Source: a virus. From it: DNA of 17,536 nucleotides. Position numbers and translations under genes: made by a program. Within the stretch, counting starts at the first letter, position 1. Every line of letters begins with the position of its first letter. Under the pieces are notes generated by a model. That model worked only from the letters and a program-made list of their open reading frames with translations, had not been told where the DNA came from and ran no database searches. Where the stretch lies: the UHGV virus genome UHGV-1676750; one strand, 5' to 3'. Positions 5,196 through 16,020 of this stretch are shown here, piece after piece.

Positions 5196-5261
5196 ATTGG
5201 TGAGCTTTATGGAAGATATTTTACAAACTAATAAGTTAGTTAGATTGGCGGTGATTGCATA

Positions 5262-8726: not shown

Positions 8727-10664
8727 ATGGCTATTGAAAAAACACTTAATACTCGTCTGAAACTTCGTTACGATTCTCATGAGAATTGGCTTGCTAATGA
8801 TCCTACTCTGCTTGCAGGCGAAGTCGCTCTAAGTGCTGTATCTGTTAAGCAGGACGGCGTAGTTAACGAAGTCCCCAGCGTACTAATTAAAGTTGGCGAT
8901 GGCACTCATAAGTATTCCGAACTAGATTATGCTTACGCGAGGGCGGCAGATGTCATCGAGCAGGCTAAGAGTGCAGAAAAGCTAACCGATTTCATCAACA
9001 ATGTAATTGCTAGTGCTGGTATTGCCACTGACGAGGCTCTAACTACTCTAGCTGGTAAGGTTACTACTGCCGAAGGCAAGATCACTGCTCTAGAAGGTCT
9101 AGTTGGCGATACTGCCGTAGCCACTCAGATTCAGAATAAGATTGATGCTCTGAAACTATCCGATACCTATGCCGCAAAGTCTCACACTCATACTAAGTCT
9201 GAGATTACTGATTTTGCGCATACTCATGTTATTGGTGATGTAACTGGTTTAAGCGATTCTATTGCTGAAGCTAAGCAGACTGGCCTTGACGCAACTTCTG
9301 CTCTTAATACTTATAAGAATACTAATGATGCTGCTGTAAAGGCCAATACTGATGCAATTGCTGCTATTAACAACGCTGACACTGGTATTCTTGCTCAGGC
9401 TAAGACTTATGCTGACGGAAAGGATGCCGCTATTACCGCTGCTAAGAATGCTGCTGATGCTGCTCAGGCTGACGTTGACGCCCTAGAAGCTAAGGTCGGC
9501 ACTGTCCCTGCAGATACCACTGTTGTCCAGATGATTGCTGACGCCCAGGATGCTGCTACTTATGATGACACTGCTCTAAAGGGTCGTGTAAGCGCAAACG
9601 AGACTGCTATTAGCAAGCTAAATGGGCTTGTCGGTGACACCGCTGTCGCCACTCAGATTAGCACTGCTGTTTCCGATGCTAAGACTGAGCTAAAGGGTAG
9701 CGCTTCCGATACCGATGCTTCTGCTACTATTGCTGGCGCTAAGAAGTATGCTGACAAGCTAGATGCTGCTATGGATGCTCGTGTTGATGCTCTAGAGGCT
9801 GCTGTTGGCGAAGATGGTTCTGTTGCAGAGAAGATCACTGCCGCAGTTGAAGCTCTTGACGCTACCGTTGAGACCGCTGCAATCCCAGAAGGTCAGGACG
9901 GTATTTATGTAAAGGTTACCGAGGTTGATGGTAAGCTAACTGCTGTTGAGGCTACTATCGAAGTATCTAATGAGATTAATGCTGCTAAGTCCGAGCTTGA
10001 GGACAAGATTGGTACTGTTGCCGAGGGTAAGACTCTTGCTGGTCTAATCGCTGACAATGCTGCCGCTATTGAGGCTCATAAGACTGCGGTCGATGCTAAG
10101 GTAACCACTCTAATTGGTGCTGATACCGACAAATCCGTGCGTACTATTGCTAATGAGGAACTGGCTGCTCAGCTGATTCCTGAGAACGCTAAGGAATCTC
10201 TAAATACCCTACAGGAGATCGCTGCTTGGATTCAGGCTCACCCCGATGATGCCGCTACAATGAATACGGCCATTGCAAACCTAAAGGCGCTAGTTGGTGA
10301 CGAAAGTGTTAACGCTCAGATTAATACTGCCGTTGACAACCTAAAGAATAACGAGATTAAGAACGCAACTGATCGCATTGCAGATCTAGAGGCTGATACT
10401 CACACTCATGCCAACAAGGCCCTGCTCGATTCTTACACTCAGACCGAAGCTGACCTGGCTGACGCCGTTGCTAAGAAGCACGAGCACGCTAATGCTACCG
10501 AACTGGCCAAGTTCGTTGAGGGTGATAAGGATAAGCTAGATGCCGCCGTTCAGACTGTTACCGCTGGCACTGGCCTCACCGCAACTAAGACTGGTACTGA
10601 TGTAGCTATTGGATTTGACGATACTGTCACTTTCGTGTTTGACTGCGGCGATAGCTCCATCTAA
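8727..10664 (+). CDS. Long tail-fibre protein: HylP-like N-terminus (variant), Ala-rich helical shaft, three VGD-x-x-V-x-x-QI modules and HTH/HxH motifs
   Basis: ATG at 8727 with AAGGAG at 8711-8716. Contains LVGDTAVATQIQNKI, LVGDTAVATQISTAV, LVGDESVNAQINTAV, SHTHTKSEITDFAHTHV and DTHTHANKALLDSY. G+C is visibly higher than in flanking AT-rich genes. Confidence 0.8.
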   Translation: MAIEKTLNTRLKLRYDSHENWLANDPTLLAGEVALSAVSVKQDGVVNEVPSVLIKVGDGTHKYSELDYAYARAADVIEQAKSAEKLTDFINNVIASAGIATDEALTTLAGKVTTAEGKITALEGLVGDTAVATQIQNKIDALKLSDTYAAKSHTHTKSEITDFAHTHVIGDVTGLSDSIAEAKQTGLDATSALNTYKNTNDAAVKANTDAIAAINNADTGILAQAKTYADGKDAAITAAKNAADAAQADVDALEAKVGTVPADTTVVQMIADAQDAATYDDTALKGRVSANETAISKLNGLVGDTAVATQISTAVSDAKTELKGSASDTDASATIAGAKKYADKLDAAMDARVDALEAAVGEDGSVAEKITAAVEALDATVETAAIPEGQDGIYVKVTEVDGKLTAVEATIEVSNEINAAKSELEDKIGTVAEGKTLAGLIADNAAAIEAHKTAVDAKVTTLIGADTDKSVRTIANEELAAQLIPENAKESLNTLQEIAAWIQAHPDDAATMNTAIANLKALVGDESVNAQINTAVDNLKNNEIKNATDRIADLEADTHTHANKALLDSYTQTEADLADAVAKKHEHANATELAKFVEGDKDKLDAAVQTVTAGTGLTATKTGTDVAIGFDDTVTFVFDCGDSSI

Positions 10665-10686
10665 TTTTATAGCCTAATTCTAAGCA

Positions 10687-10717
10687 AGTTGCCTCGTTAT
10701 TCGTAACGGGGCAACTT
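10687..10717 (+). promoter_or_regulatory. Intergenic hairpin without a U-tract (RNA structure or processing/regulatory element)
   Basis: AAGTTGCCTCG (10687-10697) pairs with CGGGGCAACTT (10707-10717): 11-bp stem with one G-U wobble and a 10-nt loop. No T-run follows. Confidence 0.35.
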
Positions 10718-10743
10718 CAATAAGAAAGGATGAGGACTTCTTT

Positions 10744-11589
10744 ATGCCAAATAAAGAAATATTGGCCCGTGTCAAGCAAAAAAGAGATACGAGCGCTAAC
10801 TGGGAAGCACGAAATCCAGTTATTTTAAATGGCGAGATTATTCTCGTAGATACCAACGCAGGCGAGCTTAGAGCTAAAATTGGCGATGGTACAAAAACGT
10901 ATACTCAGCTACCTTTTTCAGATGAAGCTTTAAGAAGCCTCATCAATGCAAATAAGGTTACGGTAGATAGTGCGCTGTCTTCTACTAGTACCAATCCTGT
11001 ACAGAATAAAATTGTAAACGCCGCCATTAGCAACTTGAATACTTTGGTTGGTGATACCTCTATATCTTCTCAAATCGAAACTGCTGTTGCTTCAAAGCTC
11101 GACGCCGCAGATGCGACTTGGGCTCAGATTTATGATTCTGGCGCAATTACATCAGAAGTAAACTCTATTGCGGGCATTGATATCACAGGTTATAAGAGTC
11201 TAATGGTTGCTGTTAAGTGTGTAAACACTACGAATACCGCCAGTACAAGAGCTGGTGCGGTAATTTTTACTGGCAATAATCAAGACTATGCGTTTAATAA
11301 TCTTTTTAGCAACCTGATTAAAAATGGTACAACAACTTCCGGTGCTATGGCTAAATTTAAGATCGTGGACGGTTTTATTATTTGTGAGACTGCTATGAGA
11401 GCAATTACTGCGGATGGCATTTTATCTGATGCCGAAGGGGTAGGAATTGATACATTAGCCCCAGTAAGTAGTGGTCTTATTAAGTGTACAAACGCAGTCA
11501 CTACAATGGCCGTTTCTAGTGCGGCTCAGTCTGCAGACCATTACTACGGTGTTGGTAGTAGAGTTATTGTTTGGGGGTGTAAGGTATAA
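10744..11589 (+). CDS. Tail-fibre protein with a HylP-like N-terminal domain and one VGDT module
   Basis: N-terminus ILARVKQKRDTSANWEARNPVILNGEIILVDTNAGELRAKIGDGTKTYTQLPF. Contains LVGDTSISSQIETAVASKL. Confidence 0.8.
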   Translation: MPNKEILARVKQKRDTSANWEARNPVILNGEIILVDTNAGELRAKIGDGTKTYTQLPFSDEALRSLINANKVTVDSALSSTSTNPVQNKIVNAAISNLNTLVGDTSISSQIETAVASKLDAADATWAQIYDSGAITSEVNSIAGIDITGYKSLMVAVKCVNTTNTASTRAGAVIFTGNNQDYAFNNLFSNLIKNGTTTSGAMAKFKIVDGFIICETAMRAITADGILSDAEGVGIDTLAPVSSGLIKCTNAVTTMAVSSAAQSADHYYGVGSRVIVWGCKV

Positions 11590-11963
11590 TGGCAAATAAA
11601 ACAATTACAGCATGGGTAAATGGTGCAGTTCAGTCAATTAGTGTTCCAGACGTGGCATATACTGCTCCTAAAGTTACCATTGAGGACAAGGTTAGTGCTC
11701 TTATTGCTACAGTGACACTGCCAGTCGCTGATTGGGCGGGTTCAGCAAGTCCGTATTATCAGACGATAGACTCTAATATTTTTACCGCCAATAGTATGGT
11801 TGATTTACAGCCAACCCCTGAGCAGCTTGCGGAATGGCAAGATGATGGACTGGCTTTTAGCACCACAAATGATAATGGAGTGGTGAAGGTATATGTTGCT
11901 GGTGGTGTACCTGCTGCCGATATTACTGTACAGATTAAGGTACAGGAGGTGGTTGTCATATGA
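11589..11963 (+). CDS. Hypothetical protein carrying a ~85-aa domain that is also present at the C-terminus of the 16021-16617 product
   Basis: TAATG overlap with the upstream gene. TLPVADWAGSASPYYQT…DITVQIKVQEV parallels TIPVNWVGTSAPYTQD…EVPIQVEVI in 16021-16617. Confidence 0.7.
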   Translation: MANKTITAWVNGAVQSISVPDVAYTAPKVTIEDKVSALIATVTLPVADWAGSASPYYQTIDSNIFTANSMVDLQPTPEQLAEWQDDGLAFSTTNDNGVVKVYVAGGVPAADITVQIKVQEVVVI

Positions 11964-12451
11964 TATATGGCAATGCAACTGGTGGCTTTGGAATGCCAAA
12001 GTCATTTGTTTTAACAGATGATAGTGGAAATGAAATGACAGGGGTTGTAACTGGTGAACAAGTTGTATTTACAGCTGGTTTAAGCGATATTAGAGCGGGT
12101 AAGGTTGCAGCCAATGCAGATGGTATTGTTACTGGTACGAAAGATATACCAGCATATCATACTACAGAAGGTCATCGAGTAATTACACCTGGAAGTGATT
12201 GTAAAATCTATATTCCTAATTACGAATATACCGGTTTACAAGCTATAGTTTGTTCATACAATACCTCTTTAGATGATAGTGTTGCCGCTAATCAAGTTGC
12301 CATTAAAGGCAATTTATATAATGTACAATCTGTAGACATATTATCTATAATTAGTATAGATAATACAGATCAGTGTATTAATTTAGGGATTACAAACACA
12401 ACTGATAATTTATTAATTATTAGATATTTTAGTTATAAGGAGATTTTATGA
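11960..12451 (+). CDS. Hypothetical protein (163 aa), Gly/Thr-rich N-terminus
   Basis: ATGA overlap with the upstream gene; AGGAGGT at 11944-11950. AT-rich (about 22% G+C counted for 12301-12360). Confidence 0.7.
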   Translation: MIYGNATGGFGMPKSFVLTDDSGNEMTGVVTGEQVVFTAGLSDIRAGKVAANADGIVTGTKDIPAYHTTEGHRVITPGSDCKIYIPNYEYTGLQAIVCSYNTSLDDSVAANQVAIKGNLYNVQSVDILSIISIDNTDQCINLGITNTTDNLLIIRYFSYKEIL

Positions 12452-12690
12452 TGGAAACGAGACGTTATGCATATAATTTTGCAGAAATTGATAATGCCAC
12501 TAATATGTGTATTGGTGTTATAACTACTACAGATCCAAACACAGAAGGTCCAACTGGTGGTGGAACAACTTTTGTTGCAATTCCAGTATATGATGAGAAT
12601 TATTCTTTAAAATATTACAATTGGGATAATGGTAAATTTTATTATGACTCTGCGTATACACAGGAGTACATTTCTCCATTACTACAATAA
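12448..12690 (+). CDS. Hypothetical small protein (80 aa)
   Basis: ATGA overlap with the upstream gene (translational coupling). No named motif. Confidence 0.6.
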   Translation: MMETRRYAYNFAEIDNATNMCIGVITTTDPNTEGPTGGGTTFVAIPVYDENYSLKYYNWDNGKFYYDSAYTQEYISPLLQ

Positions 12691-12712
12691 TTAAACAAAG
12701 GGGCGACGGATT

Positions 12713-12883
12713 ATGAATAAATATTTCTATTGTTATAGCTATCCATTAAAAGAATTTTTCAAAAAAAACGGCTTAAGTTACATTACCGCCGCTACGAATC
12801 ATTCAACAAATAAAACGTATTGGTTGTTTGAAGGATCTGAAAAATTAAATATGTTATTACAAAAATGGCGTTTAAATAAATAA
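12713..12883 (+). CDS. Unannotated small ORF (56 aa), hypothetical; absent from the ORF track because it is under 60 aa
   Basis: ATG at 12713 preceded by AAAGGGG. Translates to MNKYFYCYSYPLKEFFKKNGLSYITAATNHSTNKTYWLFEGSEKLNMLLQKWRLNK. Contains an A8 run at 12761-12768. The stop codon is embedded in the hairpin at 12862-12893. Confidence 0.4.
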   Translation: MNKYFYCYSYPLKEFFKKNGLSYITAATNHSTNKTYWLFEGSEKLNMLLQKWRLNK

Positions 12884-12900
12884 ACGTCATTTTCTATTTT
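12862..12900 (+). terminator. Candidate AT-rich intrinsic terminator
   Basis: AAAATGGCGTTT (12862-12873) pairs with AAACGTCATTTT (12882-12893): 12-bp stem with one G-U wobble and an 8-nt loop, followed by CTATTTT. The stem is AT-rich, hence modest stability. Confidence 0.4.
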
Positions 12901-12928
12901 ACAAATGATGTTTTGGAGGTAACTAAAG

Positions 12929-14266
12929 ATGAAGAAGTTGACGCATGAAGAATTTATTGAGAAAGTAACGAAACTCAACGAACATGTTGCAAATGGTGAG
13001 ATAGAAATATTAAGTCAGTATATAAACCAAAGAACTAAAATTAAATGTAAATGTGCCATACATAATACTATATGGGAGAGATCGGTACAAAGCCTTTACG
13101 AAAATAGTGGTTGTGAAGATTGTAAATATGAATTAAGTGGAAGAAAAAGACGGTTTTCACATGAAGAATTTGTTGAAAAGATAAAGGTTTTAAATGATGA
13201 AATTATAGTTTTGGGACATTATACAACGATGAATAAATCAATTGAATTTCAATGTAAATTTGGTCATATATGGACAGCCAAGCCTTATAGCATTATCAAT
13301 GGGCATCAATGTCCATATTGTGCTGGGCAAAAACCTATAATTGGGAATAATGACTTATGGACAACAAGACCAGACGTTGCAAGTTTATTAAAAAATCGTG
13401 ATGACGGATATGGTTTGATGGAATTTAGTCAGCGTAAAGTAATATTTATTTGTCCAACATGCGGTAACGAAATCATAAAATCAGTTCAACGTGTATCAAT
13501 AGATGGGCTTGTTTGCCAAAGATGTTCTGATGGTGTATCATATCCGAATAAATTTGCAAGAGCATTTTTAAATCAACTACTTGGTAATAATTTTAAATGT
13601 GAGTATCAACCTGATTGGGCCAAACCATATTATTATGATAATTATTTTGAATATGGTAATAAGAAATATATTTTGGAGATGGATGGCAGTTTTCATTATA
13701 TTTCAAGACAGTTGACCAAACAGTCTCTTGATGAACGAAAAAGGATTGATGCATTAAAAGATAAACTTGCTGAGCAACATAATATTCGTGTTATTCGTAT
13801 AGAGTGTATAAAATCTAATTGTAATTACATAAAGAATAACATTTTACAATCCGAGTTGAGTTTAGTTTTTAATTTATCTAAGATTAATTGGGATTTATGC
13901 GACCAAATGGCGCAAAGAAGTTTGGTTAAAGATGTTTGTAATTTATATATGAACGGAATAAAAGATTTGCATAAAATAGCAGAAATATTGCATATTAGCA
14001 AAAGTACGGTATATGTATATTTGGTTAGAGGTTCTAAGTTTGGATGGTGTGATTACGATGGGAAGAATGCTCATTACTTGAAAATTTCTATTCCAATAAT
14101 TGTACTTGATGAAAATAACAATGCTATACATAAGTTTGATAGTATTAGTGCGTGCAAAGAAGAGATGAAAAAAATGTACGGATATTCATTTGATAGAAAT
14201 ACTTTGAAAAAAGCTTGTGAGTATTCTATTTCATATCATGGATTTAACTTTAAATATGCGTATTAA
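12929..14266 (+). CDS. Multi-domain homing-endonuclease-like protein: tandem zinc-ribbon modules, a Vsr/DUF559-like PD-(D/E)xK nuclease core, a helix-turn-helix and a NUMOD1-like C-terminal DNA-binding domain
   Basis: Two ~60-aa repeats ([TS]HEEF[IV]EK…LN…C-x-x-H…W…G-x-x-C-x-x-C) and a third CPTCG…CQRCS module. KKYILEMDGSFHYI…DERKRIDALKDKLAEQHNIRVIRIE resembles the DUF559/Vsr-like endonuclease motif. KIAEILHISKSTVYVYL is HTH-like. The C-terminus IPIIVLDENNNAIHKFDSISACKEEM…YHGFNFKY parallels the C-terminus of the GIY-YIG protein. Very AT-rich. RBS GGAGGT at 12915-12920. Confidence 0.65.
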   Translation: MKKLTHEEFIEKVTKLNEHVANGEIEILSQYINQRTKIKCKCAIHNTIWERSVQSLYENSGCEDCKYELSGRKRRFSHEEFVEKIKVLNDEIIVLGHYTTMNKSIEFQCKFGHIWTAKPYSIINGHQCPYCAGQKPIIGNNDLWTTRPDVASLLKNRDDGYGLMEFSQRKVIFICPTCGNEIIKSVQRVSIDGLVCQRCSDGVSYPNKFARAFLNQLLGNNFKCEYQPDWAKPYYYDNYFEYGNKKYILEMDGSFHYISRQLTKQSLDERKRIDALKDKLAEQHNIRVIRIECIKSNCNYIKNNILQSELSLVFNLSKINWDLCDQMAQRSLVKDVCNLYMNGIKDLHKIAEILHISKSTVYVYLVRGSKFGWCDYDGKNAHYLKISIPIIVLDENNNAIHKFDSISACKEEMKKMYGYSFDRNTLKKACEYSISYHGFNFKYAY

Positions 14267-14336
14267 CAATACAAAATTAATGTTTAAAGTAATTAGTGAA
14301 ATAATAAAGTCTAAAATACTAAGGAGGAGTTTATAT

Positions 14337-15557
14337 ATGTCTAACCCCAATTTCAATCCTACGTATAGCTCGAACTTAATTTGGAGAGATGAAGACGACA
14401 CTCGTTGTATTACTGATGACCTAGATAATATCGAATCCGACATCACTGCACTCGAAACAGGCAAGGCCGACACTAACCATACACATACCGGATATGCTAC
14501 TACAGATCACACTCATACAGGCTACGCCGCAGCAGATCATACCCACACTGGCTATGCGGCGGCTGCAGACGTAACTACACTACAAAATTTGGTTGGAGAC
14601 ACTAGTGTATCTTCTCAGATCAGTACGGCTATTGCGGGCAAGGTTGATGCTGTGGAAGGTAAAGGCTTGTCTACCAATGACTATACGACAGCCGAGAAGA
14701 ATAAGCTTACTGGAATTGATACAGGAGCTAACAATTATGTGCTTCCAACTGCAAGCAGCACTACTCTTGGCGGTATTAAAACTGGGGATAACATTACTAA
14801 TTCGTCTGGTACGATTAGTCTAACAAAAAGCAATGTCACGTCAGCTTTAGGATATACTCCATTTGGCAGTAGTACGTTGTCAATGGCCAATGGTGGTACT
14901 GGCAGCGCTCAGGTTGTTAATGCTCCAAAGAATGCCATATTGAAGAAGGCAAACGATGGGAACTATGTGTGGTATACTCAGACAAAAAGTGGGGCTTTCT
15001 ACGCTACTGCAACAGATGGAGTTCCGAAATTCGGTGTACTGCCCAAGGCATTAGGTGGCACAGGTGCGGATTTCAGTAATATTCCAGCTAATGCTATTAT
15101 TCGTAATTCTGGTTCTGGCGGTAGTGACTTGTACTATTTTGCAACTGGCAATGGGGCATGCTATGCCACATCAGCTAATGGGTATCCGACTTTTGGTACA
15201 TTGCCCGTAGCGCAAGGTGGCACTGGCGAAACTACTGCTTGGACAAATGGTACAGTTACGAGTTTGAATAGTACTACTATTACATCATACCAATTTGCTG
15301 TTTTCCCCTATTTAAATAAGGCATTTATTAGGCTTAATGTGCTATTAGGTAGTGCTTTAGATGCTGACGAAGCTAGATATATAGTAATGCCGTCAACTGT
15401 TGCAACTGCACATACTGCTTTGTCTTGCTTTAATATTGCTGGATATGATATTCATTGTGGTATGGCTAGCGATAGTGGCATTTATGTAATTAATTGTGGT
15501 ACTGCTTCAATGCCCAATACTGTACGTCTTTATATTGCGGGATGGTATTCAATCTAA
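14337..15557 (+). CDS. Tail-fibre protein with an HTHTGYA triple repeat, one VGDT module and repeated GGTG motifs
   Basis: ATG at 14337 with AAGGAGG at 14321-14327; the track ORF from 14217 overlaps the upstream gene and lacks an RBS. Contains NHTHTGYATTDHTHTGYAAADHTHTGYAAA, LVGDTSVSSQISTAIAGKV, and three L-x-x-x-GGTG motifs (MANGGTGSA, PKALGGTGAD, PVAQGGTGET). Confidence 0.8.
   Translation: MSNPNFNPTYSSNLIWRDEDDTRCITDDLDNIESDITALETGKADTNHTHTGYATTDHTHTGYAAADHTHTGYAAAADVTTLQNLVGDTSVSSQISTAIAGKVDAVEGKGLSTNDYTTAEKNKLTGIDTGANNYVLPTASSTTLGGIKTGDNITNSSGTISLTKSNVTSALGYTPFGSSTLSMANGGTGSAQVVNAPKNAILKKANDGNYVWYTQTKSGAFYATATDGVPKFGVLPKALGGTGADFSNIPANAIIRNSGSGGSDLYYFATGNGACYATSANGYPTFGTLPVAQGGTGETTAWTNGTVTSLNSTTITSYQFAVFPYLNKAFIRLNVLLGSALDADEARYIVMPSTVATAHTALSCFNIAGYDIHCGMASDSGIYVINCGTASMPNTVRLYIAGWYSI
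14475..14564 (+). repeat. Three tandem 30-bp coding repeats, each encoding [ND]HTHTGYA-x-x
   Basis: aaccatacacataccggatatgctactaca / gatcacactcatacaggctacgccgcagca / gatcatacccacactggctatgcggcggct. Confidence 0.75.
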
Positions 15558-15571
15558 GGAGGATGATATAT

Positions 15572-15940
15572 ATGAAAATTCTACTTGATGAAAATAATTA
15601 TCTGACTTGTATTTGTATTGATGCTGAATTAGAGAATGGTATAGAAGTAGAAACCCCAGATGACATTGATGCTTTTATTGACGTATTTAGGGCGTATAAG
15701 TATGAAGATGGCAAATTGATTTTAGATGAAGCAAGATTGGATAAGTTGAACAATGAACGTTTAGCAGATGAATTACGTCATAAGCGTGAGAAAAAATGTT
15801 TTCCTATTATTAATCGTGGGGCACTTTGGTACAATCATCTGTCTGGGCAACAAAGAGCCGAGCTGGATGTGTGGTATCAGGCATGGCTTAATGTTACTGA
15901 GACGAAAGTTGAGCCTGAAACGCCTGAGTGGTTAAAATAA
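15572..15940 (+). CDS. Hypothetical protein directly downstream of the fibre gene; possible fibre-associated or assembly protein (assigned by position only)
   Basis: ATG at 15572 with AAGGAGG at 15556-15562. Trp-rich C-terminus (…DVWYQAWLNVTETKVEPETPEWLK). Confidence 0.6.
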   Translation: MKILLDENNYLTCICIDAELENGIEVETPDDIDAFIDVFRAYKYEDGKLILDEARLDKLNNERLADELRHKREKKCFPIINRGALWYNHLSGQQRAELDVWYQAWLNVTETKVEPETPEWLK

Positions 15941-16020
15941 TTATATATATGCACAACAGTGGGGCGCAGTGGTAACATTGTGCCCTATAGTTACAATACG
16001 AATAAAAGGAGGTATCAAAC

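Follow-up and report, generated by a model that had tools for sequence, protein, structure and literature searches.

Free-standing homing endonuclease elements of T4 have a G+C content below that of the host genome and are associated with co-conversion of flanking markers. Zinc fingers of the CapR/DUF723/DUF4379 type have been described as DNA-binding modules of phage homing endonucleases, and the genes that carry them are found at the boundaries of genetic exchange (PMC10055350). A large class of such proteins, in which CapR/DUF4379/DUF723-like domains, three to five in number, precede a domain distantly related to EDxHD/Vsr, is regarded as an outgroup of the EDxHD/Vsr homing endonucleases (PMC12350094, NAR 2025). 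The prototype of the EDxHD enzymes is I-Bth0305I (PDB 3R3P), and Hef of the T4-related phages is cited as Vsr-like in the same paper (PMC3239194). Here we describe a gene at positions 12929-14266, on the + strand, of a 17,536-nucleotide (nt) stretch of the virus genome UHGV-1676750; the whole of this stretch is referred to below as the window. The gene encodes a protein of 445 amino acids (aa) and is, with a probability that we put at roughly 0.78, an active, selfish, free-standing homing endonuclease gene of the zinc-finger plus Vsr-like (EDxHD outgroup) class.

The gene was defined from the open reading frame (ORF) list, its translation, PHROGs matches, homologues and an AlphaFold model, and the position and length given for it in the initial annotation proved to be exact. 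The ORF has an ATG start, with GGAGG at 12915-12919, ten bases 5' to it. At least 416 homologues of the protein were found, and an alignment of 120 of these, with 37-53% identity, was used to assess conservation. The predicted domains are, in order, two zinc fingers, a zinc ribbon, a nuclease, a helix-turn-helix (HTH) and a NUMOD1-like domain, with about 125 residues following the nuclease. Finger module 1 (aa 1-70, 12929-13138, THEEF...CKC..H..W...GCEDC) has a weak Pfam match to CapR (aa 28-65, E=0.024), and Pfam DUF4379, a 'probable treble-clef zinc finger', matches the protein in two stretches (E=7e-11), the better of which, aa 102-134, lies in module 2 (aa 76-135, 13154-13333, SHEEF...C...H.W...CPYC). 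C128 and C131 of module 2 are conserved in at least 90% of the aligned sequences. A conserved linker (GFNDLWTTRPD...) and a CxxC...CxxC zinc ribbon follow at 13343-13528; in the ribbon C175, C178, C196 and C199 are invariant, and the AlphaFold model has strands at 170-174 and 181-185. When the full-length model was compared with the PDB using Foldseek, the top matches were trypanosome mitoribosome proteins with DUF4379 zinc ribbons, in confirmation of the finger modules, and matches to PD-(D/E)XK enzymes were weak. The two or three zinc-ribbon modules proposed earlier thus correspond to two N-terminal modules and the invariant ribbon. Among the homologues the number of N-terminal [TS]HEEF...C.C..H..W...GC..C modules varies, and precomputed annotations for them include PF14311, PF05265 and PF21817.

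The domains that follow the nuclease are less sharply defined. An HTH-like helical domain is predicted at aa 321-372 (13889-14044), with four helices in the model; the HTH noted initially has counterparts in Pfam matches to HTH_7, HTH_17 and Sigma70_r4_2 at aa 336-370, all of them weak and below the Pfam thresholds, and a homologue profile searched against PDB chains matched MarR/DeoR HTH proteins at E of about 0.01-0.02. The C-terminal domain (aa 385-445, 14081-14263) is NUMOD1-like, with a sub-threshold Pfam NUMOD1 match at aa 388-408 (E=0.0018); the weak Pfam HTH and NUMOD1 matches together range in E from about 0.002 to 0.01. In one homologue (contig L113) NUMOD1 is above threshold, at 29.3 bits, and shorter homologues of 373-390 aa, which cover about 83-85% of the query, lack only this last domain. 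The C-terminal tail had also been likened to that of a GIY-YIG protein encoded at 1006-1833. The likeness is weak: both proteins have sub-threshold NUMOD-type matches, but the BLASTP alignment between them is not significant (E=1.2).

The part of the protein on which its identification as a nuclease depends is a predicted Vsr-like PD-(D/E)XK core, aa 201-320 (13529-13888). Residues E225, W230, D237, F240, E250, H256, D274 and K277 are invariant in the 120 homologues and D252 is conserved in at least 90% of them; the segment YILEMDGSFHY...RKRIDALKDKLAEQHNIRVIRIE contains the invariant E250, H256, D274 and K277. AlphaFold2 modelled the full-length protein, from the 120-sequence alignment, with a pLDDT of 93.5. 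The nuclease core was also modelled alone (aa 200-322, pLDDT 92.5), the zinc ribbons being dominant in the full-length Foldseek comparison, and has the order alpha-beta-beta-beta-alpha-beta. A fold search with this core model gave among its top matches the Vsr endonuclease (1cw0, score 9.1), the catalytic domain of I-Bth0305I (3r3p, 8.6) and the Neisseria NGO0050 'endonuclease-like' protein (3hrl, 8.4), together with several RAP-domain proteins, the best of which was 9g6k_Li (8.6); the next matches were the generic PD-(D/E)XK enzymes VRR-NUC, Can2, TnsA and Hjc. In the model D237 lies on beta-2, E250-x-D252-G-x-x-H256 on beta-3 and D274-x-x-K277 on alpha-2. This spacing resembles that of D51/H64/H69/D97 in Vsr and D196/N208/H213/D222 in I-Bth0305I (catalytic residues from PMC3239194), with equivalences assigned by secondary-structure position, and D237, D252 (x position), H256 and D274 are spaced comparably to the corresponding members of the EDxHD motif. 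The Vsr/DUF559-like segment of the initial annotation is therefore present, and a core of this type is supported by the predicted structure and the conserved chemistry.

Proteins of the CapR/DUF4379/DUF723 plus EDxHD/Vsr-like class (PMC12350094) and those of phages KSAP7 and KSAP11 share with the window protein the tandem treble-clef fingers of about 60 aa, followed by a Vsr-like nuclease, and the class is, like the window gene, phage-borne and mobile. The window protein aligns with the staphylococcal VSR proteins over aa 2-301, at 26% identity. There are also distinct differences. The subfamily to which the window protein belongs has two finger modules rather than three to five, plus an extra invariant ribbon abutting the nuclease; the nuclease, a C-terminal domain of about 100 aa in the described class, is central in the window protein and is followed by the HTH and NUMOD1-like domains; and the KSAP7/KSAP11 genes are intron-associated, whereas the window gene is intergenic and free-standing. 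I-Bth0305I has the Vsr-type fold in common with the window core model but no detectable sequence similarity to it, and, unlike the window protein, it is intron-encoded, carries NUMOD2/HTH repeats at its N-terminus and lacks zinc fingers. As for Vsr (PDB 1CW0) and NGO0050 (3HRL), the window protein has no Pfam match to Vsr or DUF559, and the zinc site and intercalating tryptophans of Vsr are not evident in it; Vsr is a repair enzyme, whereas the window protein occurs in a mobile phage context. The T4 Seg/Mob and Hef genes resemble the window cassette in being intergenic and sporadic, and this cassette likewise shows low G+C and a candidate co-conversion tract, but their DNA-binding modules differ from those of the window protein.

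Comparison with related phages shows that the gene is an insertion. The related contigs, given here as L numbers, come from gut-type metagenomes, one of them from a giraffe. In nine of them (L003, L012, L083-L088 and L188) the site is empty, the flanking genes being 44-100 nt apart; relative to these, the window carries about 1.65 kb of additional DNA at 12691-14336 (+ strand), from the stop codon of an 80-aa gene to the start of a fibre gene. The nearest syntenic contig is L003, in which neighbouring genes have 91-96% protein identity to those of the window; an 81-aa gene is followed there, after 44-70 nt, by the fibre gene, and both the endonuclease gene and a 56-aa gene that precedes it in the window are absent. 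When metagenomes were scanned with the 80-aa protein for an empty-site allele of >90% identity, only the 70%-identical L188, from the giraffe, was found; it is empty, yet too divergent to place the breakpoint to the base. Its absence from this site in related phages means that the gene is not a conserved core gene, in agreement with the earlier proposal of a selfish inserted element. Mobility is also supported by homologues in other intergenic slots and by decayed copies, both described below. No Rfam intron family and no tRNA was found in the window, and an intron-borne gene was rejected on these grounds. In relatives each flanking gene is an ORF of its own with a separate ribosome-binding site; the endonuclease gene is free-standing and intergenic.

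A second line of evidence is the distribution of mismatches between the window and L001, a contig that encodes the same endonuclease and is 98.3% identical to window positions 10675-15446. The 84 mismatches in this region are unevenly spread, with 40 at 10675-11275, only 4 at 11275-15075 and 40 at 15075-15446, so that a near-identical block of 3.8 kb is bounded by flanks that are 7% and 11% divergent. The block begins within fibre gene 10744-11589 and ends within fibre gene 14337-15557, an arrangement that implies chimeric fibre genes. A block of this kind, centred on the cassette, is the trace that would be expected of recent homing with co-conversion, and we regard it as a candidate co-conversion tract.

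Base composition points in the same direction for part of the region. At 0.300, the G+C content of the endonuclease gene is below that of the window (0.403) and of the fibre genes, both upstream (0.41-0.47) and downstream (0.43); the marked AT-richness reported initially is thus evident, and the figure of about 22% G+C given for 12301-12360 was recounted as 0.217. The low-G+C stretch, from about 12200 to about 14330, is wider than the endonuclease gene and also takes in the 3' half of ORF 11960-12451 (163 aa), ORF 12448-12690 (80 aa) and the 56-aa ORF 12713-12883, which the initial annotation did not mention and whose G+C content is 0.251.

Several observations weigh against a homing endonuclease of this class. 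The first Glu of EDxHD (E25 in Vsr), on helix alpha-1, has no conserved counterpart in the family, in which the invariant E225 and E250 lie elsewhere. Searches of all PDB sequences with phmmer, with a 37-homologue profile and with the core profile gave no nuclease match; hhalign of the core profile with E. coli Vsr gave a probability of 0.05%; and neither Pfam Vsr nor DUF559 matched at E<=1, agreement being confined to the ExDGxxH...DxxK pattern and the fold. The link of the core to Vsr and I-Bth0305I is thus a structural one, resting on a predicted model; the lack of a sequence match is consistent with the 'outgroup' status given to the class in PMC12350094. The AT-rich 'island' is in part not caused by the insertion: homologues of the 163-aa and 80-aa genes are somewhat AT-rich (0.33-0.39 G+C) in endonuclease-free relatives, so that only the 56-aa and endonuclease genes are clearly foreign in composition. 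The block shared with L001 could stem from ordinary mosaic recombination unrelated to the endonuclease. Finally, the window ORF ends about 6 codons short of most homologues, which terminate in ...ETIQN.

We infer both the catalytic activity of the 445-aa protein and its target site. In the mechanism that we propose, the two CapR/DUF4379 fingers, the ribbon, the HTH and the NUMOD1-like domain would read a long target, which the Vsr-like PD-(D/E)XK domain would cut in a metal-dependent reaction, with D237, E250/D252, H256 and D274/K277 as candidate residues. In a mixed infection the enzyme would cleave the intergenic region that separates the 80-aa gene from the downstream fibre gene in an allele without the endonuclease gene. 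With the endonuclease-carrying genome as template, recombinational repair would then copy the 1.65-kb cassette, consisting of the 56-aa gene, a leader hairpin and the endonuclease gene, and variable lengths of the flanking fibre genes would be copied along with it.

An alternative is that the gene is a nuclease of homing ancestry that has been co-opted and is kept for the benefit of the phage, in marker exclusion or in attack on satellites or competitors, as with Odn of ICP1. Domains derived from homing endonuclease genes have been recruited in conflicts between phages and satellites (PMC10055350), the gene retains its catalytic residues and is surrounded by host-range genes, a setting in which exclusion would be advantageous, and several intact paralogues can be kept in one genome. 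This last point is illustrated by L189 and L190, which come from a single 162-kb scaffold (ENA TONG22-1_SAMN15871070 scaffold_7) and therefore represent one genome with at least two paralogues, about 19 kb apart; the L189 homologue follows holin/amidase (lysis) genes and that of L190 is in the tail-tube region, and a DUF5659-like partner is found beside each. A gene with a faint LAGLIDADG match is also present nearby on this scaffold.

Co-option fits poorly, however, with a distribution that is sporadic even in close relatives. In L089/L090 a homologue of 50% identity occupies the same slot, in the gene order 164-aa, 81-aa, 56-aa, endonuclease, while in L091 a homologue lies in a different slot, after a 274-aa gene. 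L001 has, in addition to the shared gene, a Vsr-type paralogue (234-1358, 32% identity) between the equivalents of window positions 10652 and 10675, of which the window has no copy; 5' to this paralogue identity to the window falls to 83%. Decayed copies are also frequent. The extra L001 paralogue (L001b) contains one in-frame TAA just 5' to the catalytic Asp codon, the Vsr-type copy in L091 (6001-7122) lacks the NUMOD1-like domain and retains the last ~11 nt of a 19-nt motif described below, and L130 (2672-3027) has a GIY-YIG remnant with only the first 37 and last ~60 codons; in L110 (2865-4079) a GIY-YIG copy is truncated N-terminally. The first three fit the cycle of gain, decay and loss of homing endonuclease genes and suggest such a cycle rather than sustained selection. 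Marker exclusion and homing can, moreover, go together. On balance we consider co-option unlikely, and favour a selfish homing endonuclease.

The frequency of decayed relatives, together with the early stop before the conserved C-terminal residues, could also mean that the window gene is itself an inactive, decaying remnant carried as a non-functional passenger. This seems improbable to us: the 445-aa ORF is full-length and keeps all the invariant family residues, the structural model is confident throughout, and a protein 100% identical to it is encoded in two further contigs from different runs. Still less credible is a non-catalytic DNA-binding regulator built from homing endonuclease modules. 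CapR, the PLE repressor, is such a derivative (PMC10055350), and CapR-type zinc fingers and an HTH are present here, but regulators of the CapR type have no nuclease domain, whereas the window protein has a complete one, with acidic and histidine residues that are invariant across the 120 homologues. An HNH endonuclease, as suggested by the best PHROGs match (phrog_559, 'HNH endonuclease', E=6e-44) and by the annotation of homologues in some phage records, was rejected as scarcely conceivable, since there is no Pfam HNH match and the predicted fold is PD-(D/E)XK.

The 'HNH endonuclease' label is carried by phrog_559 and by several GenBank phage records, in disagreement with the Vsr-like PD-(D/E)XK domain; its wide use looks like a propagated misannotation. 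Further PHROGs matches were to phrog_4538, phrog_681, phrog_9084 ('homing endonuclease', aa 170-308) and phrog_7140 ('intron encoded nuclease', aa 236-303); an NCBIfam search gave nothing useful for the endonuclease. With the core profile, 5,246 representatives of 50%-identity clusters were found at E<=1e-3 and 3,199 at E<=1e-10, and 221 phage records were matched by tblastn. Tail and structural modules commonly contain homologues. The terminase gene of Staphylococcus phage KSAP7 has group I introns in which homologues lie, under the annotation 'group I intron-associated VSR homing endonuclease'. The initial annotation had called the architecture atypical and unusual. This view has to be abandoned in the face of these numbers, the existing VSR annotation and the class described in PMC12350094: the 445-aa gene is an ordinary member of a very large, recently recognised family.

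The second gene of the insertion is the 56-aa gene at 12713-12883 (+ strand), which ends about 45 nt upstream of the endonuclease gene and is DUF5659-like (phrog_21297, E=2e-15); DUF5659 was found in 9 of 11 homologues of its product. At empty sites it is missing along with the endonuclease gene. In a consensus scan a terminator-like hairpin with a T-run was detected at 12862-12893 (+ strand), spanning the stop codon of the 56-aa gene and lying just 5' to the ribosome-binding site of the endonuclease gene, and a similar T-rich leader is found before endonuclease homologues. Homologues of the 56-aa gene (at least ~47% identity) occur at loci L008, L089, L093-L099, L107-L152 and L189-L192. In viral contigs 47 copies of this similarity, at 46 loci, were examined, and about nine in ten of these are followed by an endonuclease gene or a remnant of one, at a distance of 25-55 nt or, in a few loci, up to ~250 nt. 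The nuclease is of the GIY-YIG type in ~24 cases, Vsr-type in ~16 and HNH in 4. The 46 loci are not independent of one another, but between them include a dozen or more different endonuclease sequences and several genomic slots. Conversely, a 56-aa homologue was present upstream in 5 of the 7 Vsr-type contexts examined. More distant DUF5659 genes lie beside capsid or terminase genes, with no endonuclease. A literature search found no paper mentioning DUF5659, and no relative of known structure was found for the DUF5659-like protein. We know of no report of a conserved small upstream gene of this kind for the T4 Seg/Mob/Hef elements. The 56-aa protein may work together with the endonuclease, perhaps as a helper, regulator or immunity factor.

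A motif search identified a 19-nt sequence, TTAACAATACAAAATTAAT, at the 3' end of the endonuclease gene (14263-14281, + strand). The motif, TTGACAATACAAAATTAAT (core ACAATACAAAATTAAT), occurs three times in the window, against 0.04 copies expected. Two copies, at 857-875 and 1816-1834, bracket a second, unrelated homing endonuclease gene of the GIY-YIG plus NUMOD3 type (1006-1833, + strand; Pfam, and TIGR01453 at E=9e-39), and the third ends the Vsr-type gene. The position of the GIY-YIG gene is conserved in L004/L005, at 69% identity. Its leader of ~130 nt (857-1005) contains a promoter-like site and, at about 928-978, a G+C-rich hairpin with a T-run, and a terminator-like hairpin at 1835-1862 directly follows its stop codon. 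At window position 857 and at L004 position 1051, the motif supplies the -35 box, together with the spacer, of a sigma-70-type promoter close to consensus.

Copies of the motif were also located in related contigs. It is present inside the empty sites of L003 and L012, and copies were located at 7930 in L003 and at 5255 and 7905 in L012. Endonuclease genes in L001, L004 and L089 have it at their 3' ends (all motif positions noted in the latter two are 1051, ~1998 and 4382, and 1989 and 7552, respectively), and it lies upstream of DUF5659 genes in L096, L098 and L099 (~3467). Ordinary fibre genes, too, are preceded by copies. The conserved C-terminal ...ETIQN of many homologues is encoded by the motif, and the window gene stops just short of it. 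The motif may be a resident regulatory element that is used as a landing site, or it may instead mark the right-hand boundary of the cassettes. A speculative extension, which we hold to be possible rather than probable, is that the mobile unit is a two-gene cassette in which a constant 56-aa gene and T-rich hairpin leader are joined to an interchangeable GIY-YIG, HNH or Vsr-type nuclease, with the conserved promoter-like motif at its end (ACAATACAAAATTAAT, 16-19 nt) as a shared landing site.

The genes on either side of the insertion are fibre-like, as had been noted. ORF 10744-11589, upstream, matches Mtd_N/tail-fibre PHROGs, and 14337-15557, downstream, matches head-fibre/tail PHROGs. The program-called ORF of the latter, 14217-15557, begins at a GTG at 14217 and overlaps the endonuclease gene; the true start is more likely the ATG at 14337, which is preceded by AAGGAGG. 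Near its start (aa ~44-70) the product has three tandem repeats of the DHTHTGYA type, of which L003 has four copies. No relatives of window positions 10700-16000 were found at the DNA level among cultured phages, and no protein match was found for the virion protein encoded at 21-845.

The appropriate annotation for this gene is a Vsr-type homing endonuclease, rather than 'HNH endonuclease' or hypothetical protein, and the metagenomes of gut phages contain thousands of unannotated members of the family. Host-range (fibre) genes surround the cassette, which forms the centre of a 3.8-kb block recently exchanged between phage variants; its position and the exchanged block suggest that such elements may drive the shuffling of receptor-binding genes. 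The near-obligate pairing of DUF5659-like genes with endonuclease genes of three nuclease families, together with the shared boundary motif, bears on the packaging of free-standing endonuclease genes and on the sites at which they land. If the tentative two-gene cassette model is true, a shared motif would open many intergenic positions in these large gut phages to unrelated endonucleases, and segments of fibre genes would be carried along with them.

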